NCBI GenBank assembly: GCA_035256085.1
Contig: DATEYP010000046.1
Location: 1 to 49,357 of the forward strand
Source: Acidiferrobacterales bacterium
Lineage (GTDB): Bacteria > Pseudomonadota > Gammaproteobacteria > Acidiferrobacterales > UBA6901
Length of the DNA stretch: 49,357 nt
Direction of reading: 5' to 3'
Numbering within the stretch: position 1 is the stretch's first letter; each line of letters opens with the position of its first letter. Under the pieces are notes generated by a model. It saw nothing but the letters and a program-made list of their open reading frames with translations. It was not told the origin of the DNA and made no database searches. This document shows positions 1 to 16,847 of the stretch, piece by piece. A program made the translations under genes and the position numbers.

Positions 1-1
1 C

Positions 2-530: not shown

Positions 531-860
531 TTAGTTGGCGGTCCAAGTTTTTGCCTGCGTACTCTTTAGCCTCCGCTCCAGCAAGCCAAAATCACCCAGA
601 TGGGCCGTCATTAAGCTCTTCCAGAGCTTGCCGTGGTTTGGGACACTGAAATGCAGGAGTTCATGGACAATCACGTACTCTCCCAGCTTTTTGTCTAATT
701 CCAATAACTCGGCATTGAAATTGAGATTGCCGTTGGTTGAGCAGGAGGCCCACTTGTTACGCATGGGGCGGATGGCCAATGAACGCACCGTGATGTCCAG
801 CTTGACGGCCCACTCGAATACGCGGGCCTTGAATTCTCCCTTATCGCGCCAGGCACTCAT
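531..860 (-). CDS. Short M48/DUF45 (YgjP-like) zinc metallopeptidase, the common hsdR-linked partner
   Basis: HEXXH motif in context VIVHELLHFSVPNHGKLW. RNKWASCS resembles the DUF45 'rWGSCs' block. Its ATG overlaps the hsdR stop (ATGA at 857-860). Confidence 0.8.
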   Translation of the reverse strand: MSAWRDKGEFKARVFEWAVKLDITVRSLAIRPMRNKWASCSTNGNLNFNAELLELDKKLGEYVIVHELLHFSVPNHGKLWKSLMTAHLGDFGLLERRLKSTQAKTWTAN

Positions 861-3844
861 GGCCGAAAGCTCTTCTGAAGCAGCATGAACAACGCCTCGA
901 CGGTGGCGGTTACCTTCTCAATATCGCCCTCCTCCGCATAGAGGGCGAATGTCACCTGCTTTCGTACTTCGCGCAGCTCAGCCTCGCTGCGCTGCCAGTT
1001 GGGGTACTTGGCGAACGCCGCAGCCACCTTGCGGCTCGCGGCCTCCGGGTTCGGGATGCCATCATCGGTCAGCTTGCACAGGACAAAGTAGGTCAGCCCA
1101 TCCAATCCCTTCGCAAGTTGCTCCTTCTTGCGGCGTTCGTTCTTCTCAAGCTCATCGAGTAGCGTGGCCAGCGCCTCGGCGGTGGTCGTTTGCCGGTCCT
1201 CAAAGCTCTCTTGCACCGCCTTGGCCCGCTCCGACAGGGCGACGAGGAAGGGATCATCACTATTCTCTTCTGCGGTCTTTTCGATGGATTTGACGAGGTT
1301 GATGACCTTCGTGTTGTCGTTTTCGTGCTTGCTCTTTATATGCTCTATGGTTTCCTCGTTCACCTCGATGTATTGGAAAACCGGCTCGATATATTTCACG
1401 CCGATCATCGACTGCACCAGTTCGTTGGTCTTCTTCTGGAACGCCCTGTCTACATAGACCTTCTTGGCGTAGGCATTGCGCACCACGGCGTAGATGGAGG
1501 ATAGGGTCGTGTAATCGTCGATAAACGGCCGCAGGAACGCATCCGGCGAAATGATCTCATAGAGCATCTCGATTTCCTTATATTCCTTGAAGAACTCCTT
1601 GCGCCGCTCCTTGTCGCGGAAGTGCTCGATCAAGTTGTCCACATCCTTGTCGTTGAACTTCTGCGTCACCAGCGCCAGATACCCCGGAGCCTTGGTCTCC
1701 ATCTTTGACTTGAACAGTTGCTTGAGCAGGCCGAGGTCCTTGACGATGGCATTGATCTCGTCGCTGTCGAAGGCCAGCGCCTTTTCCAGCTTGTCGAAAA
1801 TGCCCACGAAATCGAGCACGAAGCCGTGCGGCTTTACCATTTCGGCCGCTTCGTTCTCGTAGGGACGGTTCACACGCGCGATGGCCTGGAGTAGCGTGTG
1901 ATCGCGCATCGGCTTGTCGAGGTACATGGCATAGAGGATCGGGGCGTCAAAACCAGTGAGCAGCTTTTCGGTGACGATCAGAATCTTCGGCCACTCGCCG
2001 ACCTTGGTAAAGTTCTTGCGAATCTGCTTCTCTTTCTTGTCGTCGAGGTGCCACTTCTTAAGGTGTGCCGGGTCGTTGTTGCTGCCGGTGAAGACGATCT
2101 CGGAATATTCCGGCGGCAGAATCTTGTCGAGTGCCTCCTTGTAGAAGGCGCAGGCTTCGCGGTCCACGGCCACCAGGAACGCCTTGTAGCCAAGCGGCTC
2201 GACGTTCTGACGGAAATGATCAGCCACGAACTGCGCCACCTTCGGCACCCGGTCCTTGCCCTTGAGGAAGTTCTTCAGGTTTACCGCCCGTTCGAGAATC
2301 TTGTTCAGCTCCTCGATGTCGGCGATGCCCTCGGTTTCGGCCAGCGCCAGAAACTCCTTCTCCATGATCTCGTGCGGCACGAGCATCTCGTTCGGCGCGA
2401 GGTTGTAGTAGAGCGGCAGCGTGGTGCCGTCCTCGATGCTCTCGCTGATGGAATACTTGTGCAGGTAGCCCTGGTCGTCCTCGCAGCCGAAGGTCTTGAA
2501 CGTCCCCTTGCCGTAAACGGTCTTGTCCACGGGCGTGCCGGTGAAGCCGATGTAGCTCGCGTTCGGCAGGCCGGCCATCAGGTAATTGCCTAGGTCGCCG
2601 CCGGTGGTGCGGTGCGCCTCATCGATGAGCACGAAGATGTTCTTGCGCGTGTTGAGGTTCGCCGGCATGTCGCGGAACTTGTGGATCATGGTCACGACGA
2701 TGCCGCGGTAGTCCTGCCCTTTCTCGTCCAGCAGCTTGTTGAGCGTGGTAATACGGTCGGCGTGTGCCACGTTGCCCAGACCCACCGCCGCCAGATTCTT
2801 GAGCATCTGGTCTTCCAATTCGTTGCGGTCGATCATCAGCAGGATAGTCGGCTTCTGCGCCGCGTTGGCCTTGAACAGCAGCTCGGCGGCCTTGATCATG
2901 GTGTAGGTCTTGCCGCTGCCCTGCGTGTGCCAGACGAGACCGCGCGAGCGTTTCGGATCGAGAGCACGCGCCACCACCTTGTCCACTGCCGCCGTCTGGT
3001 GCTGGTGCAGAATGAACTTTTGGAGTTCCTCCTCCTTCTCGGCGAACAGGATAAAGTCCTTCAACACGCGCAGCAGATGCAGCACGGCGCAGAAGCTCTT
3101 CACCTTGGCTTCGAGGTTGCCGACCTCGTCGCTCTTCCAGCGGAAGATGTTCCGCCGCACCGTGTTCCACGTCACCCCATAGGCGAAGCCGATAGCCTCG
3201 GTGACGGTGAACAGCATCTCCGGCACCATCACCTCAGGTGTCTCGGAGTGGTAGCGGCGAATCTGGTCCACCCCGAGCGCGGTCGCCTCGTCCTTGGTGG
3301 CGTTCTTGCATTCGATCACCAGCACCGGGATGCCGTTGATGAGGAACACCACGTCCTCGCGCGTGCCGTGGCGGCCGTTGTGGACGTAGAACTCCTCGGT
3401 CACCTCGTACACGTTGCGCCATTGCTCGCGCGGCCGAGTCAGATCCGCGTAATCGATGATCTGAAGATCCAGCTCGCGGTTTTCCTCGGCGCAGAAGAAC
3501 TTGCCCTGGTTGCGGAGGTAGGCGAGAAAATCCCGGTTGCCGGCGATGTCGGCGTTCAGCCGCTGGAACTCACCAACCAGCGCGCCTTCGGCCTCTTTAT
3601 ATTTCGGGTTGAAGGCGCGCACTTGGGCGTGAAGCAGGTCGCCGAAATAGAGCGACGCCCTGCGCGCCTCATCCGCATTCTCCCTCTCCCCGCCATTCAT
3701 CCCCTCTCCCTCTGGGAGAGGGCTGGGGTGAGGAGGAAATCCACGCCTCATCTCGGCTTCGGCGCGCGGCACAAAACGCCAGCCGATCTCCTGCGCGTAC
3801 GCGAGGATGCGGGCTTGGACGGTTTTGTGTTCGCTGGGTTTCAT
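857..3844 (-). CDS. hsdR: Type I restriction enzyme R subunit (intact)
   Basis: N-terminus MKPSEHKTVQARILAYAQEIGW. Helicase motif I HTQGSGKTYTM and DEAH box LIDEAHRTT. About 995 aa. ATG at 3844..3842 (the track's first M is a TTG at 3847) overlaps the hipA TGA. Confidence 0.95.
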   Translation of the reverse strand: MKPSEHKTVQARILAYAQEIGWRFVPRAEAEMRRGFPPHPSPLPEGEGMNGGERENADEARRASLYFGDLLHAQVRAFNPKYKEAEGALVGEFQRLNADIAGNRDFLAYLRNQGKFFCAEENRELDLQIIDYADLTRPREQWRNVYEVTEEFYVHNGRHGTREDVVFLINGIPVLVIECKNATKDEATALGVDQIRRYHSETPEVMVPEMLFTVTEAIGFAYGVTWNTVRRNIFRWKSDEVGNLEAKVKSFCAVLHLLRVLKDFILFAEKEEELQKFILHQHQTAAVDKVVARALDPKRSRGLVWHTQGSGKTYTMIKAAELLFKANAAQKPTILLMIDRNELEDQMLKNLAAVGLGNVAHADRITTLNKLLDEKGQDYRGIVVTMIHKFRDMPANLNTRKNIFVLIDEAHRTTGGDLGNYLMAGLPNASYIGFTGTPVDKTVYGKGTFKTFGCEDDQGYLHKYSISESIEDGTTLPLYYNLAPNEMLVPHEIMEKEFLALAETEGIADIEELNKILERAVNLKNFLKGKDRVPKVAQFVADHFRQNVEPLGYKAFLVAVDREACAFYKEALDKILPPEYSEIVFTGSNNDPAHLKKWHLDDKKEKQIRKNFTKVGEWPKILIVTEKLLTGFDAPILYAMYLDKPMRDHTLLQAIARVNRPYENEAAEMVKPHGFVLDFVGIFDKLEKALAFDSDEINAIVKDLGLLKQLFKSKMETKAPGYLALVTQKFNDKDVDNLIEHFRDKERRKEFFKEYKEIEMLYEIISPDAFLRPFIDDYTTLSSIYAVVRNAYAKKVYVDRAFQKKTNELVQSMIGVKYIEPVFQYIEVNEETIEHIKSKHENDNTKVINLVKSIEKTAEENSDDPFLVALSERAKAVQESFEDRQTTTAEALATLLDELEKNERRKKEQLAKGLDGLTYFVLCKLTDDGIPNPEAASRKVAAAFAKYPNWQRSEAELREVRKQVTFALYAEEGDIEKVTATVEALFMLLQKSFRP
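3681..3736. repeat. REP family A copy (CCCTCTCCC-loop-GGGAGAGGG hairpin plus GGGGTGAGG flank) inside the hsdR coding frame
   Basis: The sequence cccctctccctctgggagagggctggggtgagg is the same core as at 49021-49043 and related to 15135, 16058, 19408, 21012, 27275 and 34255. It is translated in frame as PHPSPLPEGEG. Confidence 0.8.
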
Positions 3845-5148
3845 CAAAAACTTTTTAACCGAAGTGTTCGCTGAATCCGGTTGCGTACCGAAAGCGATAC
3901 ACCCGCTTCTTCGGCATAATCCTCCCAGCGGGATACTGTTTCCCGCACCTCGTTGACAATGTTCTCGGCTCGCCCGCGCTTCATCGAAACGGCCTTCGCG
4001 CAGGCCTTGAAATCATCCATCGTGAAGTCATCACGCTTGCCGTTCATAGTCATCTGGTGGCTGGCCGTCCATGCGCCGGAAGGATTAAAACTGTAGATCA
4101 CGTCAAAGGCAGGCGAAAGCGACCATTTTCCGGTTTTATCCATCAGGAAAGCGATGTTTTTGACATGGTCGTCCTGATTGCGTGCGACGATGTTAAACAC
4201 CATGCGGCGGAACTGTTCCTCGATCGCGCCCATTGGCAACCCCAACTGTCGAATCACCAGCAGCGCCTGTTCATAGGCATAGGCACCCGCCATATTGAAA
4301 TCGTAATGCGCCAGCGCGCAAAGCGATTGCATGTGGAGTTTCTCGCCACCGGCAAGACGGTCAAAACGCCGCGTCATAAAATGACGCCGGCCGTTTTCCT
4401 CGAACAGCCGGCATTCGCTGATATCGATACCGCAGTCCCTGGCCATCTTGTAATAGGCGTATTCAATGACGCCATAACCTCGCGGGTCTTCGAGTTCCTT
4501 GTCCCTGTTCCCTTGGACACCGTCAAATTTCAGCAGCCAGTATTCGAAACCCTCGCCTGCCGGAATCTGGCCGGAACGGACCTCGTTGGTTGATGGACTC
4601 CAGGCAATCACCGCCTTGGCCCGGGCGCCACCGGCCGAGGTGCCGACCCGCAGGATATCGGTCAACGCCTGTTCCCGGCTTTCATCGGCAAAGGAAGCCC
4701 GAAGATCATTGCGATGGGTGAGTACTTCCGATGCCAGCTCAACCAGCTTGTCGATTTGTATCCGGCTGGCCTGCCGCGCTTTGGGCCCAGTCGCGGGCGC
4801 AAATTCCAAAGCCCCCATCCCGCGCTCGCCGGTATAGCAAAGCCGTTCGACCACATTGAACGAGTCCGGCTGCCGGCCCTGAGTGGCCAGCCAGGCATCA
4901 ATCAGTACGTGACCGAACTTGTCCGGGAGCGAGTCCGCCAGCAGTCCGGGCAGCCCGTAAAAGGTCTTTCGGGATAACTCGGGGAAGGCGTAGACGCGGT
5001 TGGAAAGCGGCATTGTGAGCGGCGAAATCTCGATGCCGCTTCTGGCAAACGACGGGTCGTACTCGAAGGCAGCCACATCCTTGCCCTCGTCCAGCAAAAC
5101 CGCACCAATCGTACGCCCCCAAAGCCTGACTTCGGCAACGGTACTCAT
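3844..5148 (-). CDS. hipA: HipA-family serine/threonine kinase toxin (type II TA)
   Basis: MSTVAEVRLWGRTIGAV... N-terminal coupling domain and C-terminal HipA kinase-like region (ARNQDDHVKNIAFL). ATGA overlap with the hipB stop at 5145-5148. Confidence 0.88.
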   Translation of the reverse strand: MSTVAEVRLWGRTIGAVLLDEGKDVAAFEYDPSFARSGIEISPLTMPLSNRVYAFPELSRKTFYGLPGLLADSLPDKFGHVLIDAWLATQGRQPDSFNVVERLCYTGERGMGALEFAPATGPKARQASRIQIDKLVELASEVLTHRNDLRASFADESREQALTDILRVGTSAGGARAKAVIAWSPSTNEVRSGQIPAGEGFEYWLLKFDGVQGNRDKELEDPRGYGVIEYAYYKMARDCGIDISECRLFEENGRRHFMTRRFDRLAGGEKLHMQSLCALAHYDFNMAGAYAYEQALLVIRQLGLPMGAIEEQFRRMVFNIVARNQDDHVKNIAFLMDKTGKWSLSPAFDVIYSFNPSGAWTASHQMTMNGKRDDFTMDDFKACAKAVSMKRGRAENIVNEVRETVSRWEDYAEEAGVSLSVRNRIQRTLRLKSF

Positions 5149-5495
5149 GTTTTGCCATCCCAGGACCACGGCTTATAGGACCGATCCGAACGGCGGCGTC
5201 TTGAGGCACGTTGCCGCACTTTTCCCTTTTGCTTTAGCAAATTCATCGGTCTCGGCCCGGCCTCGGGGATCATGCGATCCAGACCCGGCAAGAGATCCAG
5301 CACCCGAAGAATCCGGATGATGCTCGACATTTGCGCGGAGGCCCCACCTTCAACCCGCTCAACCGTCCGCTTGGCGACACCCGCCTGATCGGCCACATCC
5401 GCCTGAGTCAATTGAAGATCAAGCCGACGCCGCGCAACACGCTCGCCGATCTCGGCAAGAATAGCGTCATCTGCAAGGAGTTTTGATATCTTCAT
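5145..5495 (-). CDS. hipB: HipB-like XRE-family HTH antitoxin
   Basis: HTH segment LQLTQADVADQAGVAKRTVERVEGG sits directly upstream of, and overlaps, hipA. The ATG at 5495 is preferred over the TTG at 5504 used by the track. Confidence 0.8.
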   Translation of the reverse strand: MKISKLLADDAILAEIGERVARRRLDLQLTQADVADQAGVAKRTVERVEGGASAQMSSIIRILRVLDLLPGLDRMIPEAGPRPMNLLKQKGKVRQRASRRRRSDRSYKPWSWDGKT

Positions 5496-5536
5496 AGTCG
5501 CCAACTTTAACGATTTATATGCTAAACATTCTGATT

Positions 5537-5571: not shown

Positions 5572-5831
5572 TGAATAAGTCTAGTCGTCTATTATGGCGA
5601 ATTCTTCAAATTACTAGAAGTAATTCGCGAATAATGACGAATTATAAATTTTTAATGGTAAATTATTTACGGATGAGTTCAGATTTTTGGCATGATTCAG
5701 CAAAGTGCGCCACTTAAAGTGGCGCGCAAGTGTTTTCTACGCCCCTTCGATTCACGCGAGTTCAGACTGAATTCTTCATACCCAAATTGGGTTTGATGCT
5801 ACCCATTTTGGGTATCCGCAGTAGTCAGTCT

Positions 5832-5983
5832 GGTAGGGTGGGCACGCTGTTTGTGCCCACGCGTGCAGGCCCTGCATCTTCGCATCTTCGCGCCCCTCCC
5901 GCGTGTGCGGGAGGCAAGTGCGTAGGGTGCGCCCTGCCGCACCGGTTCCGATTTCCGCGTGGGCACTTCGTGTCCACCCTACC
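5832..5983. repeat. MITE/REP-like element of the GTAGGGTGGGCA type with 15-bp terminal inverted repeats
   Basis: Left end ggtagggtgggcacg; reverse complement of the right end ggtagggtggacacg (14 of 15 match). Internal hairpin cctcccgc-gtgt-gcgggagg. A related gtagggcgcgc motif is at 49101. Confidence 0.5.
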
Positions 5984-6124
5984 CAGCTTTGTCACCAACA
6001 GTTTCCCAGCGATTAATCTTGTAAATTCACATATATTATATGTTTAATACTTAAAATTATTTGACAAATCGACATTATTGTACGAAATTACAATTTATTC
6101 TAATAAATAATCCGTCTTAAAGCC

Positions 6125-7381
6125 ATGCTAATTGAGTTCCGCGTCGGCAACTATCGCTCAATCCGGGACGAGCTTGTCTTGAGCCTGGTTGCATCCACGG
6201 ATAAGTCGCATCGCGAGACCCACGTGGTGCATATCGGTCCCAAGGCCATCCCGGACATGCTGCGTAGCGCTGTCTTATATGGCCCGAATGCCGGAGGAAA
6301 GTCCAACCTGGTCAACGCCGCGGCATTCATGCGCGCGGTGGTGGCCGATTCGGCCACCACCATGCAACTGGGCCAGACCTTCAATGTGCAGCCCTTTCGG
6401 CTGAACCCAAACACCGCCAAGGAGCCAACCCGCTTCGAGCTAACATTCCTTGAAGATGGAGTTCGCTATCAATACGGATTCGCGCTAACAGCAGATCGCG
6501 TAACAGAAGAATGGCTTCTGGCATATCGCACCGCCAAGCCGCAACAGTGGTTCACTCGTCACTACGACCCGGACTCAAGCCGCGATGTCTATGAGTTCGG
6601 TTCGCACCTGACCGGCCAACGCAAGCTGTGGCAGGAATCCACCCGCACCAATGCCCTCTTTCTCTCCACTGCCGTCCAACTCAACAGCGAGCAGCTGCGC
6701 CCTGTATTTGCCTGGATAGTACATAAGCTAGTCGTTTTCGGCGCCGGTGTACTTCCTCAGATTGACTTCTCCGTTGGCATGCTCCAGCAGAGCGAGGGCA
6801 AGCAGGCCATACGCGAGTTTATGGCCTCCGCTGACATCAGCATTACCGATATTGACGTAGCCCCACGCAAGGGCGTGGCACAGACATTCAACTTTGACGC
6901 CGCCACTGGCAAGTCCGATGTCCGTACCGAAGAACGTGACTTTCTGATGCCGCAGTTTCGTCACGAAACTGAACACGGCTCGGCCACCTTCGAACTCGGT
7001 GATGAATCCTTGGGCACTCAACGGCTGTTTGCATTGGCGGGACCGGTGCTGGACATTCTCAAGGCCGGGCGCATCCTGATCGTGGATGAGCTCGATAGCA
7101 GTCTGCATCCTTTGCTGGTGAGGCGACTGGTAAGTCTGTTTCACAATCCCAAGATCAACACGGCCAACGCACAGCTCGTTTTTACTACTCACGACACCAC
7201 ACTGCTCGACCCCGATCTGCTCCGCCGCGACCAGATCTGGTTTGTCGAGAAGAATCGCGAGCAGGTCACCACGCTCTACCCGTTTACTGACTTCAGCCCC
7301 CGCAAAAAGGAGGCATGGGAACGTGGTTATCTCTTGGGCCGATTCGGCGCGCTGCCTTTCTTCCGCGATCTGGTGTCGTAA
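6125..7381 (+). CDS. ABC-type AAA ATPase (AAA_15/21-like; AbiLi / RloA-like)
   Basis: Walker A YGPNAGGKSNLV, Walker B ILIVDELDSSLHP, H-loop VFTTHD. Followed 8 nt later by an RloB-family gene. Confidence 0.85.
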   Translation: MLIEFRVGNYRSIRDELVLSLVASTDKSHRETHVVHIGPKAIPDMLRSAVLYGPNAGGKSNLVNAAAFMRAVVADSATTMQLGQTFNVQPFRLNPNTAKEPTRFELTFLEDGVRYQYGFALTADRVTEEWLLAYRTAKPQQWFTRHYDPDSSRDVYEFGSHLTGQRKLWQESTRTNALFLSTAVQLNSEQLRPVFAWIVHKLVVFGAGVLPQIDFSVGMLQQSEGKQAIREFMASADISITDIDVAPRKGVAQTFNFDAATGKSDVRTEERDFLMPQFRHETEHGSATFELGDESLGTQRLFALAGPVLDILKAGRILIVDELDSSLHPLLVRRLVSLFHNPKINTANAQLVFTTHDTTLLDPDLLRRDQIWFVEKNREQVTTLYPFTDFSPRKKEAWERGYLLGRFGALPFFRDLVS

Positions 7382-7389
7382 GAAACCCT

Positions 7390-8054
7390 ATGGGGCGCGA
7401 TAATCAGCCCAAGGAACGCCAGGCTCGGGCACTGGCGCGCAAGAAAGCCAACCGCGCCAGCTACGAACGCATCCTGATTGTCAGCGAAGGCGAAAAAACG
7501 GAACCGTTGTACTTCGAAGAAATTTGCCAACACTACCGGCTGCACACGGCCAATATCCGCATGATGCCAAGCGCCTATGGCACCACGCCCCAGCAGGTGG
7601 TGGATTTCGCCAGAGACGAGTGCCTGAAAACGCGGGAGTGGGAACATGTGTTTTGTGTTTTTTACGCGACGACCACCCCAGGGCCAACTTTGATAACGCC
7701 ATGGCGAGCACTGCCGCTCTGGACAAGAAACACAGGAATGAGCTTAAACAGCCCATTCGCTTCACCGCTATTCCATCCATCCCCTGCTTCGAGTTATGGC
7801 TGTTATTGCATTTCGAGCGTATTACCCGCGAGTGTCATCGCAATGAGGTCTATAACCTTCTGCGACAGCCCGGCCGTCTGCCAGGATACGATAAAAGCCA
7901 GGGCGGTCACTTTGCCAGAACCCGCCACCTGCTCGACACGGCCTATGGGAACGCGGCAACACTGACTGCGGAACGGAAGCGCCATGGTAACGAAAATCCG
8001 TTTACCGCCGTAGACACACTGGTCAAGTTGCTGACGGGTTTGAAACCCGATTAA
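7390..8054 (+). pseudogene. rloB: RloB / AbiLii-family gene split by a 1-nt frameshift at a T6 run
   Basis: The N-terminal frame gives ILIVSEGEKTEPLYFEE...EWEHVFCVF. The C-terminal family sequence (RDDHPRANFDNA...IPSIPCFELWLLLHFE) continues in another frame after ttttttt-minus-one at 7658-7663. Confidence 0.8.
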
Positions 8055-8212
8055 TCCAACGCCGAGCGGGTGCGTTTCTCGGGAGTAGCGCCATCACGGT
8101 CGAAGCCACGTCGCTTCTCCGTATTAGCACGCGGCACAAAGCGCCAGCCGATCTCCTGCGCATAGGCATGGATGCGGGACTGGACTGTTTTATGTTCAGT
8201 GGGGATAGGCAT
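8051..8212 (-). pseudogene. hsdR: 53-codon 5' remnant of a second hsdR allele
   Basis: MPIPTEHKTVQSRIHAYAQEIGWRFVPRANTEKRRGFDRDGATPEKRTRSALD* against intact HsdR MKPSEHKTVQARILAYAQEIGWRFVPRAEAEMRRGF. It starts 3 nt after the STAND gene stop, and its stop overlaps the rloB stop at TTAA 8051-8054. Confidence 0.8.
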
Positions 8213-8215
8213 GTA

Positions 8216-11200
8216 TTACCTTTCAAATTCCTCAAGACCAGATTTCACGTCATTGATGCCTTCGATGCACATCTGGTCGATCAGATCAAGGCAGCGTGGC
8301 GCCCATTCATCGCGCTGGTGCTGTTGGTAGGTACGGAAAATCAGTTTCGCCACTGTGTGGACATCACCACCTCGCTGGGTGCGGATGTCCTTCGCTTCAT
8401 CGCTAAAACGTGCGAGGAATTTTTCGCAAACGACACAGGTAATACCTGGCAGTCGTCTCAGCGATTCTTCCAGTACGTGCAGAATCGGAAACGAGTCCTC
8501 CTGGTAGGCCGCGCTATCGCAAAATGCGGTGATGAGAGACTCGTACGATTCGAGCGGTTCTTTCTCGAGATAACGAAAACAAGACGCCGATGCACGGCGC
8601 ACTTCCGGAGTGTCGTCATTAAAGAGCTTCAACAAATGTTTTTCGCACCATTCCCGACACTCTGCGGAGGCGATATTACAAGCTGCGACGATGGCGACGC
8701 CTTTCCGTTGCGATGCATTTCCAGCCATTGCTTCTTCCACCAAATCAGCCGCAGAATGGCCATAGAGCACCGCGAGACTGGCAAACCGTGCGCCTGCGTT
8801 GTTTGCCTCTTCATCCGTTGAGCGAAGTAACTTTTCAACATATGGGCGCATTTCGCTGTAGTTCTGCCGGAGCCCATGGTAAATGAAGTGATCAGCGTAT
8901 TGGGTTGCCAATAAGCGGTCATCAGCAGAGGCAAGCGACTTGAAGAGGGAAATTGCCAACGGTGTATCGTGGCGAGCTACCGCCAACAGAGTTGAAGCGG
9001 CGCACGAACGCACTGAGACGCTCTTATCGTTCACCAAATGTTCCTGCGTAGTACGGAAGCGTTCGATGTAACTGGCATCCTTCAGAATAAGATCGCGAAT
9101 TGCCTCCGCTGCACGTCCACGTGTCGTGTTGATACCGTGCGTGAGGATGTCGCCTCCGTTGTAGGACTGACCACTTGTTGCCTCGACGTTCCATAACTCC
9201 TTTTCTGGATCTGGATGCTCAGTTGCTAACCAATCGAGCATCTGCACGGCTTCATCTGAAAGCGGCTCTTTAATACTACCGAGCAGATCGGCGATTGCCC
9301 TGCCGCACTCCTCGCGCGATTCACGATAAGCCTTCTGACAGACGGCGAGCTTCAGGTCAGTAGCTGCTGCCGCATCTTTGAGACCGTCCAGCGTCCGCTC
9401 GATATAGGCGGGATTAGTGCCCGGTGGAAATCGCAGGCTCAAGCGGGCAAACCGTTCCGGTTCATTGCGAACATACTCGCGCAGCATTCCAGCAAGCTCC
9501 CGCGCACCGCCTTTTTCTGGGTCGTCCCAACGATGAATTCGTTCCTCCGTGTGATATTTCGCAATCGCCTTAAGCCATTGTTCATCCGTCATCATATCTG
9601 CGTGTCCCTTCTCAATTGGCGATCCGACTGTGAACGTACGGATTCCACGAGGGGCGGCATCAGGTTCCCCAAATTTTCGTTCCAGTTCCTTGAACCGAGA
9701 TTGCGCATTCTTGCTCCGGAGTTCTGGTGGTATCGCTGAGAGCAACGTGTGTTGTGCGCGACCAGCGATCTTGTGCCCTCCGGCGGTGCGTTCGTATTTG
9801 GGCCTATACGCCAGGATCGCTGTTTCCAGCCGTGTCAGATTACCCACGGAACACGATGGAGCGATGGCCTGGATGAGTTGCATGGCGACCCAATATGGAC
9901 TATCTGCGTAGCCACAGTCGAATCGCCACGTCTCGGCACAGAGTAGCGTGGCGGCCTCGTCTGCAAAGTGAGAGGCTCCGCTTGTATACAGATTTAGAAG
10001 AAGAAAATTCGCGATATAAGTATCACGCCTGCGAAGCTCAGCAATGACAGGGCCAAGGGTGTCGGGTTGGTCTTTGGCCGCATGCCCTAACGCAGTAATC
10101 AACGAATTCAGGCAGGCGCTGTCAATCGTGTCGTATTCTTTCTCTTGCAAAAGAAGCCATATTGCACCACGTAACGGCGGTTCTGAGTTGGTTTTGTAAA
10201 CAGCTGCATCTGTAATTTCGAGAACAACTGGCAGAACGTACTGCACAAAAACAGCGGGCGCCTTTTCCGCAGCTTTGAGGAAATACCTGGAGCCAAAGGC
10301 ATCATGGCTGAATATGTCTCTCCACGGAACCCTTCCGTTCTCGTCTTTTTGTTGCTGAATAAGCGTTGAGCGCCTTTTTAACCAATGGGTGATAACTTCT
10401 GGAATCCATTCGGGCTTAGCCTCGGCTAAGCCATGGAGCATGCTCCAGAATGTGCTGTTAACAGCGATAGGCCCCCGTGCCTCATCAAGTGTTCCATCGT
10501 CAATCAGCCGCAAAAACAACTCAAAGAAACGTCGGCTACTCTCGTGGTCCGCCCATTCCACTACATGGCGTAGCCGTAGTGTCCAATCGCCCTCTTTCCC
10601 AACATATGGCTCCAGCAATTCGGCAACTCGATCACCAAATTGCCGCTGGTGGGACCGTAGGTAGTTCACAGCAACATTGACAAGCCATTCGTTCTTAGAA
10701 GCCAGCCACCCCGCTATGAGCCCACGCTTATCAGCAAGATGAAACCAAGTTGGTGAAACAAAGAAGTGTTGCCAAACGAGGGTAGTAAATTTGTCACGCT
10801 TACGCTGATCATATGCGAAGGCTTCCAGTTGCATATTTAACCATGGCTCCAGCACTGCCCATTCATCATCGCCAGGACCTTCCACGCTCACGAGCATTGC
10901 GAGAATTAGGTCTTTGATGTGAGCGCGAACGCGGCTGTCAGTAAGCAAAGTGCGAAGCTCGGAGCAATAACGCAAACGGTCTGCGTCGCGAAGATAGGCG
11001 AGAACCTGCCTAACCTGGGCGCGACGGAAGAGATGCTGCTCCGATGTAGTCAGGAACTCCGCAAGCGGGTGGTCTTTCGTGACAAACGCGCGGGCGAAAC
11101 AGTAGTCGAAAAAACTCTCGTGGCCAAATCCGTAACGTTTGCCATCGAAAGTGAGCACGCCTTCAGATGCCATCTGCGCAACGTAGTCAGTTGCAAACGG

Positions 11201-12757
11201 ATCGAGTTTCTCACGCGGCACAGAGAGTTGCTGAGTGCGAGTCATCTCCTCGCATAGCAGTTCGATGATCAGTGCCCATTGGTCGGTCAACAGAACGGCA
11301 CGCCCGTTGACAGCCCGGCGCTTCGTATCCCAGTAGCGGTCGAAGAGCTCTTTTGCTGTGTTGAACTTCGGAGCGGTCGCCGGGTTGAACTCAGCGTCGA
11401 GAAATAGGGAAAGGTTCTGTGGCAGACGCAGCAACTCCATTTGGCGCGGCTGAAGTATTTCGATACGAAAACCTGCGGCAGAAAATACCGCTTTCACTTC
11501 CTCGGGGGTGAACTCGGAAACTTCGACCTTGGCATGTTGCTCAGACACCATCCGACGGAGCCGATGATCATTTTCCCAATCAAACGCCCGGCAGACGACT
11601 ACCACATGCAGCTTGAGTCTTCCGCGAAGTCCGCGAGCTTCAGCAAGTAACCCCTCCACCGCATCGAAAAGCTCCGCACTCCGGCCGGAAGTTGTGCTGA
11701 CCGCATCCAATTGATCCACAACCAAAACAGCCTCCCTACCGGCGGCTGCCGCGGCCAATACGAGCGCAGGAGATTCTTCCAAACCAAGTTGCTGACCAAG
11801 ATCAGCGGTTGCCGAAACCGGTACGAGGCGATCGGCACGAAACACTAAAACCGGGGTTCCGCGGTTCCGCAGGCTTTCCACGAATTCGACGACGCAGCCG
11901 GTTTTACCAGTGCCCGCTTTACCAGTAAGTACGAAATCACCTCCGAGCGGCTCACTATCGACTTGACTGAGAAGCGCCTGCGTAGCGGTGCGGGAGATCA
12001 GAGACTGCCGAATGAGCTTCTTTCGAGCACCTTCAAGATAGTTCTTGGTTACCTCGGCAATGAGCGGACCTGCCGAATCCAGCTTTGCCAGCCGGCGAAG
12101 CTTGTATCCACGCGTCGCCATACGCTGCACAAGCAAATCTCGTGTTAGCGTCTGATGGACGGAATCCTCTGCAATGCGCCGTAACTCGGCGCTCGCCGAT
12201 TGCGGATCGCTGAGAAATAATGCACTTAGCCCCCACCGCACTTGCTCGTCGAGGCTTGCCTGGTCCATCGTGCGAACTTCAATGCGTCGCAGAACGTCGT
12301 ATGCCGACGCCGCGTTGATGTTGCTCCAGTACTTTCTCAGCCTCTCGAAATTAGCTTCTTGGACCTTGGCCGCGAGAAACTGGGTCTCAAACTCCGATGC
12401 CGATTCCGCCTGCCGTGCGCGCTCGCTGAGTTCTCGCAGTTCTGGTGCATCGCTGCTGGAAACGAACACAAACCGCTCGCTGTTTCCCGATAGTTCGGCA
12501 GATATAGCTTGCAGGAGGTTCACATCGGATGCAGCCAGAGACGCGAGGGTCCATTTGCCGTCTGGGTGGCTGCGCTTTGCCTGGTGCAGTTCGCGCGTTC
12601 CTCCGCTCGTTACCACGAACTCGGCCTTCGTGACTCCGGGGTCTTCAATGCGGATGCTCTCCACCTGCCCGTGCAGCATTCGCACGAACTGCGAAACCGT
12701 CCACGACGATTCGTAGCGGTTACCAAATTTGTCAGATGACCCGCCAGGAAGCGGCAT
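8216..12757 (-). CDS. 1513-aa tripartite protein: Cap4/DUF4297-like PD-(D/E)xK nuclease, STAND (NACHT-like) P-loop NTPase and a long helical/HEAT-like repeat region
   Basis: N-terminus GGSSDKFGNRYE...IRIED...ELHQAKR. Walker A LTGKAGTGKTG (nt 11900-11929), Walker B AVLVVDQLDA, then HVVVVCR. C-terminal HEAT-like units DKSVSVRSCAASTLLAV and DDTPEVRRASASCFRYL. Confidence 0.85.
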   Translation of the reverse strand: MPLPGGSSDKFGNRYESSWTVSQFVRMLHGQVESIRIEDPGVTKAEFVVTSGGTRELHQAKRSHPDGKWTLASLAASDVNLLQAISAELSGNSERFVFVSSSDAPELRELSERARQAESASEFETQFLAAKVQEANFERLRKYWSNINAASAYDVLRRIEVRTMDQASLDEQVRWGLSALFLSDPQSASAELRRIAEDSVHQTLTRDLLVQRMATRGYKLRRLAKLDSAGPLIAEVTKNYLEGARKKLIRQSLISRTATQALLSQVDSEPLGGDFVLTGKAGTGKTGCVVEFVESLRNRGTPVLVFRADRLVPVSATADLGQQLGLEESPALVLAAAAAGREAVLVVDQLDAVSTTSGRSAELFDAVEGLLAEARGLRGRLKLHVVVVCRAFDWENDHRLRRMVSEQHAKVEVSEFTPEEVKAVFSAAGFRIEILQPRQMELLRLPQNLSLFLDAEFNPATAPKFNTAKELFDRYWDTKRRAVNGRAVLLTDQWALIIELLCEEMTRTQQLSVPREKLDPFATDYVAQMASEGVLTFDGKRYGFGHESFFDYCFARAFVTKDHPLAEFLTTSEQHLFRRAQVRQVLAYLRDADRLRYCSELRTLLTDSRVRAHIKDLILAMLVSVEGPGDDEWAVLEPWLNMQLEAFAYDQRKRDKFTTLVWQHFFVSPTWFHLADKRGLIAGWLASKNEWLVNVAVNYLRSHQRQFGDRVAELLEPYVGKEGDWTLRLRHVVEWADHESSRRFFELFLRLIDDGTLDEARGPIAVNSTFWSMLHGLAEAKPEWIPEVITHWLKRRSTLIQQQKDENGRVPWRDIFSHDAFGSRYFLKAAEKAPAVFVQYVLPVVLEITDAAVYKTNSEPPLRGAIWLLLQEKEYDTIDSACLNSLITALGHAAKDQPDTLGPVIAELRRRDTYIANFLLLNLYTSGASHFADEAATLLCAETWRFDCGYADSPYWVAMQLIQAIAPSCSVGNLTRLETAILAYRPKYERTAGGHKIAGRAQHTLLSAIPPELRSKNAQSRFKELERKFGEPDAAPRGIRTFTVGSPIEKGHADMMTDEQWLKAIAKYHTEERIHRWDDPEKGGARELAGMLREYVRNEPERFARLSLRFPPGTNPAYIERTLDGLKDAAAATDLKLAVCQKAYRESREECGRAIADLLGSIKEPLSDEAVQMLDWLATEHPDPEKELWNVEATSGQSYNGGDILTHGINTTRGRAAEAIRDLILKDASYIERFRTTQEHLVNDKSVSVRSCAASTLLAVARHDTPLAISLFKSLASADDRLLATQYADHFIYHGLRQNYSEMRPYVEKLLRSTDEEANNAGARFASLAVLYGHSAADLVEEAMAGNASQRKGVAIVAACNIASAECREWCEKHLLKLFNDDTPEVRRASASCFRYLEKEPLESYESLITAFCDSAAYQEDSFPILHVLEESLRRLPGITCVVCEKFLARFSDEAKDIRTQRGGDVHTVAKLIFRTYQQHQRDEWAPRCLDLIDQMCIEGINDVKSGLEEFER

Positions 12758-12760
12758 GGC

Positions 12761-13981
12761 TTACTCCGTGGTAAGCGCTGCCAGTTCTGGCAAGTCGAGG
12801 TCGTGGACACGAATCTGCGCCGTCATCAACTGGTGCAGCAGGGTGCGGAAAAGGTCCGTTAAAGACTGCTTTTTATGTTCATGGATCATCACTTTCTGTT
12901 CCGCCGTGTCCAAGCAGTCAGCGATTTCCATCTGAACGTCTAGCTTCGGATAGAACACCGGCATTGAGCCCAAGACTGTGTTATTAAGGTTAGGCATTAT
13001 TGCGCCAGCGGCGTGGCTGTTCAGCCAAGCGATCACACCAGAAGTTGAGCACAGATAGGAGAGGAAACGGTTGTCTATATGATTTTGGCGCACACGTGCG
13101 AGGAAACAGCCAGTTCCACACAACCACCCCTCCTCATTCTTCGTTACCATTCCGTGCCGTCCAATCTCCCCTCGACGCGCAAAAAGTATGTCACCTGCCT
13201 CCAATTGATGTCGCTTCAGCCGAGCCGCAGTTTCGGAGCTTACTCGTGGCACATCTTCATGATTGATCCTATTTCCCCAAAGATGGGTCGGATTCACAAC
13301 ACCAACGCCTTCCTCCAGATAATCGTGCTTGTGGAGCTGGCTTCCGAAGGGACCGGTTTGTAAAAAGCCATAAGGCAAGCAAGCGAGGTTGCCGAGCGTG
13401 GTTGCTTCCCAACTCTCCGGCACGGGGCCGATTTCGGTTTGTTTTTGGGGTTCGCCGCGTAGGCCTTGGGTGAAGAGTTGGTGGAGGAGCGTCTTTTTCA
13501 GTTCGGCGGTGAGCTGTAGCAGCCGCTCCTGCTGCTCGATCGATCGCTGCACCACGCCCAACACGCCAGCGATCTTGCGCTGTTCGTCCTTATCGGGGCG
13601 AGGAACCGTTTTCTCTTTCAGGACTGTGAAGTGACGGTTGTATCCGCGATTTGGGATGTCGAGACTCAGTAGCGCGTAGTAGAAAAACTTTGGATCGAAA
13701 AGGTCTTCCTTCGGCTTCAGAACTTTTGTGCCGTCTGCTCCAAGAATGAATGGGAAATCCACATACTTCACGCAGCGTGTGTGATCCCCAAAAATCACCA
13801 TCGGAAGATCATCGCGGATAACCCGTTCCTCCACATCCGAGTAGCCGGCTATGAACGCTTGGCCTTGATCGACCACCGGGAAGCGACCGAAAGGCTGGAT
13901 GTCGGCCGAAAGTACTTGGTTCTCTCGCCCAACCTTCGTTTTGCGAACCGCTTCGGGAAATTCGATTGATGGCCAAGACAT
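12761..13981 (-). CDS. hsdS: Type I R-M specificity subunit
   Basis: Two target-recognition halves, each followed by the conserved HsdS helix (KKTLLHQLFTQGLRGEP and LFRTLLHQLMTAQIRV). Sits 3 nt from both neighbouring genes. Confidence 0.9.
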   Translation of the reverse strand: MSWPSIEFPEAVRKTKVGRENQVLSADIQPFGRFPVVDQGQAFIAGYSDVEERVIRDDLPMVIFGDHTRCVKYVDFPFILGADGTKVLKPKEDLFDPKFFYYALLSLDIPNRGYNRHFTVLKEKTVPRPDKDEQRKIAGVLGVVQRSIEQQERLLQLTAELKKTLLHQLFTQGLRGEPQKQTEIGPVPESWEATTLGNLACLPYGFLQTGPFGSQLHKHDYLEEGVGVVNPTHLWGNRINHEDVPRVSSETAARLKRHQLEAGDILFARRGEIGRHGMVTKNEEGWLCGTGCFLARVRQNHIDNRFLSYLCSTSGVIAWLNSHAAGAIMPNLNNTVLGSMPVFYPKLDVQMEIADCLDTAEQKVMIHEHKKQSLTDLFRTLLHQLMTAQIRVHDLDLPELAALTTE

Positions 13982-13984
13982 GGG

Positions 13985-15094
13985 CTATACCACCACTTCT
14001 TTTACATACTGCACCCGCTGTTCCCGCACCACCAACGCCCGCTCCCGTTCCAACTCTTCGCGCAGGGCCTCCTCCGTCGGCAGATAGAGCATGTATTTCG
14101 ACGCGAACAACTGTCGGTTCTCGTTGAGCACGGAGTATTTCACCACGGTGTGGTCTTTTTCCGTGCACAGGATGATGCCGACGGTGGGATTGTCGTCCGC
14201 GCCTTTTACCGTGTCCTCGAACAGCCGGACGTACATGTCCATCTGGCCGATGTCCTGGTGGGTCAGTTCGCCGGTTTTGAGATCGACTAGGACGAAGCAT
14301 TTGAGGATGTAGTTGTAGAACACCAGGTCAACGAAGAAGTCCTTGGTCTCCGTTGAGATGCGCTGCTGGCGGGCGACAAAGGCGAAGCCCTTGCCGAGTT
14401 CGAGCATGAAGGTCTGGAGTTTGCCGATGATGGCCTGTTCGAGTTCCGCCTCGCGGAATTCGTGGGCATCCGGGATGCCGAGGAACTCCAGGACATAGGG
14501 GTCTTTGATGAAGTCCTGGGGCGCGGGGGCAAGCGGCGCGGTCTTTTGCTGCATTTCTTCCGTGACCGCCGCCTTGTCGCGGCTCATCAGCAGGCGTTCG
14601 TAGTAGAGGGAGTTGATCTGCCTTTCCAGGGCGCGGGTACTCCAGTTCTGGCTGGCTGCTTCGGTGACGTAATAGGCTCGGGCGGCCTCGTTTTCAACAC
14701 GAATCAGTGCTTTATAGTGGCTCCACGTCAATTCGCTCCGCAGTGCGGAGCGAATTGAGAAGCAGGAATAAAATTGACGCATGTTGCGAAGACTTTGCTC
14801 CGAAAACCCCGTCCCGAACTCCGCGGTCAGGCGGATGGACAGGTTCCTGAGCAGCGCCGCACCGTACTCCGCCCGCTCTTCGCCGCGTTGCTCCTCCTCG
14901 ACTATTTTCCGCCCGACGTTCCAGTAGGCCTCGACCATGGCGAAGTTGACGGCCCGGTAGGCATTGGCGCGGGCAGCGCGGAGGATTTCGGCGATGGATT
15001 GGTATAAATCTCTCCGCGTCGCGGAGAGATTCTGGTCTCCGCGCGCAGGTCTGCCGCCTGATTTTGGTTTGGCTACGGCTTTCTTCCTTTTCAT
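13985..15094 (-). CDS. YhcG/DUF1016 PDDEXK-nuclease family protein
   Basis: YRAVNFAMVEAYWNVGRKIVEEEQ... and FVDLVFYNYILKCFVLVDLKTGELTHQDIGQMDMYV are typical DUF1016 blocks. The start is taken at MKRKK (15094), because the 31 upstream codons of the tracked ORF are REP sequence. Confidence 0.85.
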   Translation of the reverse strand: MKRKKAVAKPKSGGRPARGDQNLSATRRDLYQSIAEILRAARANAYRAVNFAMVEAYWNVGRKIVEEEQRGEERAEYGAALLRNLSIRLTAEFGTGFSEQSLRNMRQFYSCFSIRSALRSELTWSHYKALIRVENEAARAYYVTEAASQNWSTRALERQINSLYYERLLMSRDKAAVTEEMQQKTAPLAPAPQDFIKDPYVLEFLGIPDAHEFREAELEQAIIGKLQTFMLELGKGFAFVARQQRISTETKDFFVDLVFYNYILKCFVLVDLKTGELTHQDIGQMDMYVRLFEDTVKGADDNPTVGIILCTEKDHTVVKYSVLNENRQLFASKYMLYLPTEEALREELERERALVVREQRVQYVKEVVV

Positions 15095-15134
15095 GTTTTT
15101 CCCTGAGTCATGTGCCGATGCTTTGATGTAGATA

Positions 15135-15176
15135 CCCCTCACCCCAACCCTCTCCCGCAAGGGGAGAGGGAGCGAG
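15135..15176. repeat. REP family A copy in the hsdM-yhcG spacer
   Basis: The sequence is cccctcaccccaaccctctcccgcaaggggagagggagcgag. Confidence 0.8.
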
Positions 15177-15215
15177 AAATCCAGCAACGCGTGGCTTGAT
15201 ACGGATCAGACGCTT

Positions 15216-16847
15216 TCATACGCCAAGCCTCGCCAATATCAGCCGCAGGGCCCGATTCGTTTCCCTGGCCTCTTCTTCCAGGACGTTCAATTCTTCCACG
15301 ATTTCGGCAATGGGGCGATATTCCTCGCCCTCGCCGGTGTGGATGTAGCGGCTCGGCGAGATGTTGTAGTCGTTCTTGGCGATCTCCTCGCGGGTGACGA
15401 TGCGCGAATACTTGCCCACTTCCTTCCACGCGGTGAAGGTGTCGGCGATGCGGGCGATGGCGTCTTCGGGGATGTAGTTCTTGGGATCGCCCTTCACGAA
15501 CTCGCGGCTGGCGTTGAGCAGGAACAGCTTGCCCTGGCGCTCCTTGGGCTTCGAATTGTTCAGCACGATGACGATGCCCGGCGCGCCGGTGTTGTAGAAC
15601 AGGTTTTCCGGCAGGTAGAGCACGCCTTCGATGAGGTCTTGCTCCACGAACCAGCGGCGCACGTCCTTTTCCTTGTTGGTGTTGGCGTTGCCGCTGCCGC
15701 GCGAGGCGGCGCCGGTGTCGAGCACCACGGCGGCGCGGCCCTTGTCGTTGAGGCTGGCGAGGATGTGCTGCATCCAGCCCCAGTCGGCCTTGCTGCCGGG
15801 GAAGCCCGCGCCTTTGGGGAAGCGGTCGAGCTCGTCGGCGTCGTAGTCCTTCTCCTTGAACTCAGTCTGGTTCCACATGGGATTGGCCACCACGCGGTCG
15901 AAGGTCTGGAGGCGGTTGCCCTTGCGAAACTTCGGCTTGCGGAAGGTGTCGCCGATTTGAATCTCGCCTTCCATGTCGTGGATGATCATGTTCATGTTGG
16001 CCATGGCCCAGGTGCCAGGCTCGTTTTCTTGACCGTAGAGTTTGATCGGTGCGTACTGCCCCTCACCCCCGCCCTCTCCCCGCTTCGCGGGGCGAGGGAG
16101 TTTTTTGGCGGTGCGCATCTTCTCGTCCAAGACCAAGCGACACTTGATGAGCAGGCCGGCGGAACCGCAGCAGGGGTCGTACACGTCCATGCCCGGTTCG
16201 GTGTCCATGATGCGCGCCATGACGAGACCGACCTCGGCGGGGGTGTAGAACTCGCCCGCGCTCTGGCCCGAGCCTTCCGCGAACTTGCGGATGAGGTATT
16301 CGTAGCTGCGGCCGATGATGTCCGGCTCCACATCTTTGAGGCCAAGGTGCTTGGCGCTGATGGCCTCGATGAGGCTGGAGAGGCGGTCGTCATCAATGTC
16401 ACGCTGGCCATGGGTGGTGGCGTTGAAGTCCACGCGATCGATGATGCCCTTGAGCAGCGGGTTGGCGTCGGCGATGGCGCGCAGGTGGGTGGTGAGCTGC
16501 TCGCCGATCTTGTCCGAGAGCGTGCGGATAACCGACCAAACGGCGTCGTCCGGGTTCTTGGGCTCCAACGGCAGGTAGAAGCGCACCAGTTTCTTGTCGC
16601 GCTTCACCAGCTTGAAGGCCTTGGCGCGCGAGCCGACCTCTTGGGCGATACGGTTCAGCTCGTCATCGAAGACATCGCACAGACGTTTGGTGAAAATCAG
16701 CGGGAGGATGAACTCCTTGTATTTCGCGGCGTCCTTCGCGCCGCGAATGGAACAGGCGGCGTCCCAGATCCAGGATTCGAGGGATTTTTCTGTCTCGGCG
16801 GCCTTGGTCGGCACCTGCTGTCTCTTGGTATTGATCACTGCGGCCAC
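15216..16847 (-). CDS. hsdM: Type I R-M DNA methyltransferase subunit
   Basis: N-terminal HsdM domain, AdoMet motif DPCCGSAGLL and catalytic VVANPMWNQ. GTG start preceded by GGGAGGGGAG. Confidence 0.93.
   Translation of the reverse strand: MAAVINTKRQQVPTKAAETEKSLESWIWDAACSIRGAKDAAKYKEFILPLIFTKRLCDVFDDELNRIAQEVGSRAKAFKLVKRDKKLVRFYLPLEPKNPDDAVWSVIRTLSDKIGEQLTTHLRAIADANPLLKGIIDRVDFNATTHGQRDIDDDRLSSLIEAISAKHLGLKDVEPDIIGRSYEYLIRKFAEGSGQSAGEFYTPAEVGLVMARIMDTEPGMDVYDPCCGSAGLLIKCRLVLDEKMRTAKKLPRPAKRGEGGGEGQYAPIKLYGQENEPGTWAMANMNMIIHDMEGEIQIGDTFRKPKFRKGNRLQTFDRVVANPMWNQTEFKEKDYDADELDRFPKGAGFPGSKADWGWMQHILASLNDKGRAAVVLDTGAASRGSGNANTNKEKDVRRWFVEQDLIEGVLYLPENLFYNTGAPGIVIVLNNSKPKERQGKLFLLNASREFVKGDPKNYIPEDAIARIADTFTAWKEVGKYSRIVTREEIAKNDYNISPSRYIHTGEGEEYRPIAEIVEELNVLEEEARETNRALRLILARLGV
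16058..16100. repeat. REP family A copy inside the hsdM coding frame
   Basis: cccctcacccccgccctctccccgcttcgcggggcgagggag is translated in frame as LPRPAKRGEGGGEG, between the AdoMet motif and LYGQE. Confidence 0.75.

Follow-up and report, generated by a model that had tools for sequence, protein, structure and literature searches.

A probable Avs7-family antiviral STAND gene carried in the hsdS-hsdR slot of a type I restriction-modification operon in an Acidiferrobacterales bacterium

Organization of the locus

The window analyzed here is a stretch of 49,357 nucleotides (nt) from an Acidiferrobacterales bacterium (assembly GCA_035256085.1, contig DATEYP010000046.1), and our subject is a large gene at 8216..12757 on the minus strand, named avs below, a candidate antiviral STAND gene of the Avs7 family. 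It is an uninterrupted open reading frame (ORF) with an ATG start that encodes 1513 amino acids (aa) plus a stop codon, and it lies in a type I restriction-modification (R-M) operon whose order on the minus strand is hsdM, a YhcG/DUF1016 nuclease gene, hsdS, avs and a 53-aa remnant of hsdR.

The hsdM gene (15216..16847, minus strand; 543 aa) was recognized by Pfam and PADLOC scans. Between hsdM and hsdS, and ending 3 nt before the latter, is a gene encoding a PD-(D/E)xK nuclease of the YhcG/DUF1016 type (13985..15094, minus strand; PADLOC PDC-S02, E = 1e-149), which is a second embedded candidate defence gene of the same operon. The hsdS gene (12761..13981, minus strand; 406 aa; Methylase_S, 2.5e-19) stops 3 nt ahead of the avs start (...GAGTAA gcc ATG), and a GGAG is located within its 3' end, ahead of that start; because of this gap and this GGAG, the expression of avs is probably coupled to that of HsdS. 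The avs stop codon is followed after another 3 nt (...GGTAA tac ATG) by the 53-aa ORF (8051..8212, minus strand), a remnant of the 5' end of hsdR whose product shares 82% identity, over 34 aa, with the beginning of the intact HsdR. The slot between hsdS and hsdR and its 3-nt gaps, as described in a first-pass annotation of the sequence, were thus borne out, but its mention of a "former" hsdR has to be corrected, since an intact hsdR of 995 aa (857..3844, minus strand; TIGR00348, 3.6e-131) persists 4.2 kb beyond the remnant. A scan of the locus for promoters and terminators was uninformative, with promoter matches at the level of chance.

An insertion carrying AbiL and HipBA genes separates the remnant from the intact hsdR. 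On the strand opposite to the hsd genes it contains AbiLi (6125-7381, plus strand; AAA_21, 418 aa) and AbiLii/RloB (7315-8054, plus strand), the latter split over two reading frames; it also contains a toxin-antitoxin pair, hipB (a helix-turn-helix protein) and hipA (3844..5495, minus strand), and the hipA stop overlaps the hsdR ATG by 1 nt. Both AbiLii/RloB frames (7315-7965 and 7524-8054, plus strand) match Pfam RloB, and contigs with an identical avs have only a 133-aa RloB. AbiLii/RloB is probably a frameshifted pseudogene beside an intact AbiLi.

The 1513-aa ORF is a real conserved gene and not a chance ORF, because its homologues fill 1029 database clusters (E <= 0.001), nearly all of the best 120 being of about 1500 aa with 55-86% identity, and because eight metagenome contigs carry the identical protein, with the layout unchanged.

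Similarity of the protein to SeAvs7

Domain libraries say little about the protein. Pfam recognizes a HEAT repeat at aa 1374-1395 (E = 4.3e-7) and gives a weak AAA_16 match at aa 261-394, whereas NCBIfam gives no match for the 1513-aa protein. In PADLOC, at E <= 0.01, the only matches are PDC-M54A (5.5e-22, aa 89-566) and LmuA (1.9e-4, aa 49-167); there is no AVAST match at this threshold, although which AVAST models the library includes was not verified.

The sole significant sequence match in the PDB is SeAvs7, a 1523-aa protein labelled "AAA family ATPase" (9n00_A, and also 9n01 and 9yix; phmmer E = 3.9e-21). Entries 9N00, 9N01 and 9YIX are the apo and capsid-bound forms of Avs7 from Salmonella enterica, whose total length is close to that of the protein studied here. 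When a family profile was built from 27 diverse homologues, the same sequences in which residue conservation was counted throughout this work, it matched SeAvs7 at E = 1.3e-51, with aa 58-641 collinear with 59-640 and aa 998-1368 collinear with 981-1369. Using hhalign, profiles of SeAvs7-like proteins made from N- and C-terminal fragments (of at most 643 aa) could be aligned with aa 26-716 (probability 99.8%, E = 2e-29) and with aa 957-1510 (probability 99.7%, E = 2e-25), the second alignment reaching the C-terminal helix. The homology with SeAvs7 spans about 83% of the protein length. Full-length plasmid-borne relatives (25% identity) were also tried as bridges, but they were no closer to SeAvs7 than the query.

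The fold of the N-terminal half points to the same class. An AlphaFold2 model of aa 1-660 (predicted local distance difference test, pLDDT, 87.9; predicted template modelling score, pTM, 0.84) found Avs3 (8dgc, 3.8e-12) as the best Foldseek match in the PDB, followed by Avs4 (8dgf) and by the NACHT domains of NLRP3, NLRC4 and NAIP. Avs3 and Avs4 were absent as sequence matches in the PDB searches, either with the single sequence or with the family profile, and the likeness to them is at the level of the fold only.

On the features compared, the protein is quite probably a divergent member of the Avs7 family, i.e., of a known class and not of a new class of sensors. The tripartite layout of nuclease, STAND NTPase and helical repeats that the first-pass annotation had read from the sequence, as well as the antiviral-STAND logic that it had attributed to it, are sustained by the SeAvs7 profile match and by the fold matches to Avs3 and Avs4. 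Its proposal of a new sensor is not supported, given Avs7, which has been characterized structurally and biochemically, and given the partial match to PDC-M54A, a candidate already catalogued by its embedding. That annotation had named membership in a characterized Avs family with a stand-alone context as the outcome that would undo it; the characterized family has largely been found, but the context here is not stand-alone. A STAND protein without a role in defence, e.g., a transcription regulator, was also considered and rejected, since the protein has a nuclease effector and is homologous to Avs7, and since R-M and defence genes surround its gene.

Domain architecture and conserved residues

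The N-terminal domain (aa 1-230; 12068..12757, minus strand) is a PD-(D/E)xK nuclease of the Cap4 type, as supported by the hhalign alignment, which starts at aa 26, the LmuA match at aa 49-167 and the AlphaFold model, which shows an alpha-beta-beta-beta-alpha-beta core. Its conserved residues are E16, E38, E46 and Q59-x-K61, the QxK motif being common to SeAvs7. The motifs that had been noticed at first, GG..FGNRYE, IRIED and ELHQAKR, are present at aa 5-16, 35-39 and 56-62, respectively. D39, however, which had been proposed as a nuclease residue to mutate, is kept in only 16 of the 27 homologues; the invariant acidic residue, and the better choice for mutation, is E38 which, like Q59 and K61, is found in all of them.

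The STAND NTPase module (aa 250-640; 10838..12010, minus strand), with nucleotide-binding, helical and winged-helix parts, is supported by the SeAvs7 alignment and by Foldseek. The central motifs previously pointed out are also found, i.e., LTGKAGTGKTG (aa 277-287, containing K285), VLVVDQLDA (344-352) and VVVVCR (385-390). The residues that matter in SeAvs7 have clear equivalents: K285/T286 in Walker A corresponds to K291/T292 of SeAvs7 (counted from the alignment; the paper prints Thr291 and Lys292), D348 in Walker B to D358, the autoinhibition arginine R359 to R367, the gamma-phosphate (sensor) arginine R390 to R395 and the winged-helix histidine H546 to H545. K285, D348, R359, R390 and H546 are invariant in the 27 homologues, of which 17 have Thr and 10 have Ser at position 286.

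The rest of the protein (aa 641-1513; 8219..10837, minus strand) is an all-alpha solenoid that forms the C-terminal sensor, as indicated by the AlphaFold2 model of aa 620-1513 (pLDDT 89.9, entirely helical) and by the profile and hhalign matches to SeAvs7. Parts of it are named HEAT by Pfam, while Lee et al. name the SeAvs7 sensor TPR-like. The two HEAT-like units quoted in the first-pass annotation, DKSVSVRSCAASTLLAV and DDTPEVRRASASCFRYL, are present in the translation. N1210, the equivalent of the capsid-contact residue N1204 of SeAvs7, is kept in 26 of the 27 sequences. No SIR2 (Dsr1-like) fusions were detected among eight shorter sensor matches checked, which resemble truncated gene calls.

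Several observations weigh against the assignment to Avs7. Where the two proteins align, only about 20-25% of the residues are identical to SeAvs7, and because of this low identity the protein belongs to a clade separate from SeAvs7. The N-lobe of the sensor (aa 717-956) falls outside the comparison, the SeAvs7-like sequences retrieved being fragments. As to the nuclease, the Pfam profile Cap4_nuclease (PF14130) remains below its threshold and is seen in only one of ten homologue N-termini, and a profile of the N-terminal domain alone gave no meaningful match in the PDB. A Foldseek search of the PDB with the sensor model returned only generic HEAT, importin and CAND1 solenoids (template modelling scores of 0.2-0.35), with no SeAvs7 entry among the 50 matches listed, although the presence of SeAvs7 in the fold library is uncertain. 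Finally, of the five positions that contact EF-Tu in SeAvs7, three are identical here and they are only partly conserved across the family. The protein sensed could also be other than the capsid protein.

Genomic context of the relatives

The neighbourhoods of 79 species-level loci encoding relatives (designated by L numbers) were searched with hidden Markov models built from the hsd genes, and in 70 of them the upstream gene could be assessed. In nine of these 70 loci, hsdS is the immediate co-directional upstream gene, and about 15 of the 79 contain type I components within 10 kb. Two gene orders were observed, hsdM-hsdS-avs-hsdR in the window, L007, L065, L085 and L087, and hsdR-hsdM-hsdS-avs in L006, L009, L013, L014 and L044, while in L038 and L067 avs lies within type I loci but is inverted relative to the hsd genes. 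Further relatives are flanked by genes for type III Mod and Res-like proteins, type ISP enzymes, SNF2 helicases or ABC ATPases of the AriA/NsnB/GajA kind. The hosts of the clade are mostly environmental Acidobacteriota, Latescibacterota, Binatia, Gammaproteobacteria and Verrucomicrobiota.

Among the relatives whose neighbourhoods were inspected, the two closest (84% and 80% identity) immediately follow hsdS in R-M loci of the same type, and a third one (72%) is directly after a 3' remnant of hsdS in a degraded locus of the same type. Relatives with 64-69% identity are located beside Hma genes (one relative follows HmaC), on integrase islets (two cases) or, as in L002, without type I genes within 10 kb; those with 25% identity are solitary genes on plasmids. 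A rough neighbour-joining (NJ) tree distributes the hsdS-adjacent loci over at least five separate clades, mixed among other contexts. The R-M linkage is real and recurrent yet facultative, and this fits a defence gene that moves as cargo embedded in other systems, of the kind that Payne et al. have catalogued. Each neighbour family occurs in at most 11 of the 79 loci, so that no gene is an obligate partner.

In eight loci (L006, L009, L013, L014, L019, L025, L044 and L079), an ABC ATPase of 585-588 aa is encoded directly downstream of avs. Its PADLOC matches include NsnB, PDC-M55A, AriA and GajA-like models, and five of the eight loci have the order hsdR-hsdM-hsdS-avs.

The slot between hsdS and hsdR

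A direct repeat of 101 nt marks the insertion that separates avs from the intact hsdR. Copy 1 (3738..3838) is inside the 5' end of the intact hsdR, and copy 2 (8103..8203), with 79% identity to copy 1, is the second hsdR 5' end; the two copies bracket the 4365-nt AbiL and HipBA insertion. Comparable scars exist in two related loci. L087 contains avs, an hsdR 5' remnant, genes for Fic and for a protein of the 23S_rRNA_IVP family, and then hsdR, with a duplicated end at 7764-7868. L086 contains hsdS, two ORFs, an hsdS 3' remnant, avs, MNT/HepT and then an hsdR 5' remnant, with duplicated ends at 7905-7988 and 13148-13300. The junction behind hsdS, i.e., TAA, 3 nt and ATG, is kept in the near clade.

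The duplications of hsdR 5' and hsdS 3' remnants that flank varied cassettes indicate a recombinational cargo slot with successive insertions, and suggest that the cassettes are exchanged or stacked by homologous recombination at the conserved hsdS 3' and hsdR 5' ends. The slot also accommodates unrelated cassettes, i.e., AbiL, HipBA, Fic, MNT/HepT and YhcG, whose junctions are no looser. The 3-nt gaps are thus a property of this cargo bay and not the sign of a special partnership, since the hipA-hsdR junction, with its 1-nt overlap, is just as tight.

A metagenome variant of the window locus, L084 (12941-14939), lacks an intact hsdR after hipA and has 21 aa of the hsdR start followed by ORFs that include DUF6161, so that the hsdR end of the island is polymorphic in nature. 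The window also contains a 33-nt inverted repeat with 82% complementarity (CCCCTCTCCCTCTGGGAGAGGGCTGGGGTGAGG), at 3701-3733 and 15137-15169. One CCCCTCTCCCTCTGGGAGAGGGCTGGGGTGAGG arm is within the N-terminal coding region of hsdR, where it encodes ...PSPLPEGEG..., and the other is just upstream of yhcG. This repeat may be a small dispersed repeat element.

Alternative explanations

The first-pass annotation took the position of avs as a sign that its product guards the type I enzyme or is regulated by it. Such a PrrC-like guard would be a STAND nuclease held latent by the R-M complex, or monitoring it, and firing when a protein of the Ocr/ArdA type disables the enzyme, an explanation that we regard as quite improbable. 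The hsdS-hsdR slot and the probable coupling of expression to HsdS speak for it, as does the location of the closest relatives after hsdS or its 3' remnant; moreover, nine out of 70 loci with hsdS upstream is far above the expectation for a random gene (a rough estimate of our own, with no measured baseline), and two type I gene orders are involved. However, type I genes are missing from the surrounding 10 kb in most relatives, relatives as close as 64-69% identity lie beside Hma genes, on integrase islets or, in one case, without type I genes in that range, avs is inverted relative to the hsd genes in two loci, the hsdS-adjacent loci are scattered over the NJ tree, and unrelated cassettes are found in the slot with junctions as tight. 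The embedded and the non-embedded homologues align collinearly and are nearly all of about 1,500 aa, with no extra domain seen, although no formal test was made. PADLOC showed no similarity to PrrC at E <= 0.01, and the proteins matched by fold and by profile are STAND and NLR proteins. In addition, SeAvs7 defends E. coli and works in vitro with only the capsid protein, ATP/Mg2+ and EF-Tu. What these data do not explain away is the recurrent and independently arisen position after hsdS, in at least five clades and in two type I orders; they only show that it is not obligatory. It is conceivable, if very doubtful, that in this clade the protein is a STAND analogue of PrrC in addition to being a capsid sensor, its translational coupling to HsdS setting its dose or permitting its assembly with the methyltransferase core, and that it is kept latent by the R-M complex or fires once anti-restriction proteins have disabled restriction. 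The census of homologue positions that had been proposed as a check gave a facultative association, and guarding of the R-M enzyme, or regulation by it, is not supported.

Two other explanations were considered. The Avs7 chassis might serve an autonomous antiviral STAND whose diverged sensor recognizes a conserved phage protein different from the capsid. We consider this unlikely, given that the SeAvs7 homology of the C-lobe extends to the last residue, that the capsid-contact Asn is kept in nearly all the homologues and that Avs7-type sensors detect the capsid even in the Dsr1 chassis (PMC13581612); yet the sensor is only about 20% identical to SeAvs7-like sequences, its N-lobe could not be aligned to the fragments retrieved, and different Avs families sense many core phage proteins (Lee et al., PMC13581612). 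It is hardly credible, on the other hand, that avs is one half of a two-gene system of the PDC-M54 type that needs an M54B partner, the copy in the window being incomplete. PDC-M54A is the best PADLOC match and PDC-M54 is defined as a cassette of two families, but aa 89-566 cover only positions 121-617 of a model of 1621 positions, none of the seven flanking ORFs scanned matches PDC-M54B, no neighbour family is shared widely among the 79 loci, and SeAvs7 functions as a single gene.

Proposed mechanism

In its resting state, SeAvs7 is a monomer that binds ADP and is autoinhibited (Lee et al., Nature 2026, PMC13581612; preprint 10.64898/2026.01.04.697583). Its bilobed sensor clamps the major capsid protein, which has the HK97 fold, and EF-Tu strengthens the complex; ATP then drives the formation of an asymmetric tetramer, in which the Cap4 domains degrade double-stranded DNA (PMC13581612). 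The SeAvs7 gene alone, with no restriction enzyme, protects E. coli, and the reaction has been reconstituted in vitro with the capsid protein, ATP/Mg2+ and EF-Tu (PMC13581612). The Avs7 family is defined by a shared sensor and comprises 3,272 curated sequences; Avs3 carries a Cap4 nuclease tetramer as well (Lee et al., PMC13581612). Capsid-protein sensing has been reported for Avs7-type sensors even when they are joined to the unrelated Dsr1 chassis, and the various Avs families sense many different core proteins of phages (PMC13581612).

We consider it likely that avs encodes an Avs7-family antiviral STAND protein that is triggered by the capsid, acts independently of the R-M enzyme and is carried as cargo of the R-M operon. 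The trigger, the oligomeric state, the abortive infection and the co-expression proposed here are drawn by homology with SeAvs7. The protein would rest as a single-polypeptide, ADP-bound and autoinhibited monomer. Its C-terminal helical sensor would clamp a phage protein that has just been synthesized, for which the major capsid protein of the HK97 fold is the most likely candidate. The clamping would free the NTPase, and ATP binding would drive oligomerization. The N-terminal Cap4-type nucleases would then assemble into an active nuclease for double-stranded DNA, and the destruction of DNA would abort the infection. The gene would be cargo in the recombination-prone slot between the hsdS 3' and hsdR 5' ends, probably co-transcribed and translationally coupled with hsdMS, and its product would add a second layer of defence that depends neither on sequence nor on the restriction enzyme.

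Comparison with known systems

The protein shares with SeAvs7 the order of the parts, i.e., a Cap4-type QxK nuclease, a STAND NTPase with a winged-helix His and a helical sensor with a conserved C-terminal helix, as well as the single-gene format and the conserved nucleotide-binding and autoinhibition residues. It differs from it by the low identity, by the partly conserved EF-Tu contacts, by the N-lobe left outside the comparison and by its nesting in a type I R-M operon, a context that the Avs7 paper (PMC13581612) does not discuss. With Avs3 and Avs4 (8DGC, 8DGF), the best structural matches of its N-terminal half, it shares the effector-STAND-sensor logic, but no sequence match in the PDB searches. 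The sensors of Avs3 and Avs4 recognize terminase and portal.

In PrrC, an ABC-type NTPase is joined to an anticodon nuclease for tRNA-Lys. The PrrC of the EcoprrI locus and the protein studied here occupy the same hsdS-hsdR slot of a type I operon, and both combine an NTPase with a nuclease effector, but there is no sequence relationship between them. In the account given by the first-pass annotation, PrrC is kept latent by the R-M complex, whereas SeAvs7 needs no other protein for its autoinhibition. According to Payne et al. (10.1101/2024.01.29.577857), PrrC is found almost only within R-M systems; the avs family mostly is not, as the context census shows.

PDC-M54A is a guilt-by-embedding candidate identified among genes located within BREX, DISARM or type I R-M systems (Payne, Hughes, Fineran, Jackson 2024, 10.1101/2024.01.29.577857). 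The protein studied here has its best PADLOC match to this model of about 1600 positions and shares the same kind of embedded context, but the match is partial, no M54B was found among the seven flanking ORFs and PDC-M54 is a two-gene cassette, for which no published function was found. The protein is related to PDC-M54A, but it is outside the definition of that candidate.

TgvAB, from VPI-2 of Vibrio cholerae, has been tested as a case of autonomous defence within a type I R-M operon (PMC11411939). Together with the rlo genes (e.g., RloB/AbiLii) linked to type I R-M loci, it is a precedent for the arrangement proposed here for avs; these systems work independently of HsdR and broaden the phage range. 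The proteins are unrelated, since TgvAB is a GmrSD-like type IV restriction system and rlo consists of an ABC ATPase with RloB.

The wider island

Directly upstream of hsdM there is a pair of the VapBC type (16882-17582, minus strand), with a FitA-like ribbon-helix-helix antitoxin of 82 aa and a PIN toxin of 151 aa. A tRNA-Lys(UUU) gene (17958-18033, minus strand) borders a region of lower guanine-cytosine (GC) content (1-17900) that holds the whole defence cluster, the GC content being 0.50-0.62 in the cluster versus about 0.63-0.66 in most of the adjacent chromosome. In a longer metagenome contig, the far flank carries tolB-pal-ybgF-queE-queC. The defence cluster looks like a tRNA-associated genomic island, and no integrase was seen in the window.

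A truncated ORF for a YgjP-like metallopeptidase follows hsdR (531-860, minus strand; 109 aa, profile positions 114-206 of 207), and the same short form is found in L085. Farther along the window, a stretch of low GC content (0.51-0.57; 32431-34083, minus strand) contains three consecutive ORFs (172, 163 and 249 aa) in which Pfam recognizes nothing, and a second GC dip, at about 37-38 kb, adjoins the gene of an HU-like DNA-binding protein (37567-38049).

Significance

The embedding of defence genes in type I R-M systems was already documented, and the present locus does not open a new class of immune sensors. It is a clear case of a type I R-M operon that carries stacked defence and toxin cassettes, and it supports the principle of guilt-by-embedding. 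The protein belongs to a large family of about 1,500 aa: no fewer than 1029 database clusters match it over the full protein, and its sensor has matches in 2437 cluster representatives at 50% identity. Members that bear any name in the sources are called "hypothetical protein" or "ATP-binding protein", for which Avs7-like Cap4-nuclease STAND can now be substituted. The Avs7 assignment provides a testable trigger, the phage major capsid protein, together with E38, Q59, K61, K285, R390 and H546 as targets for mutation.

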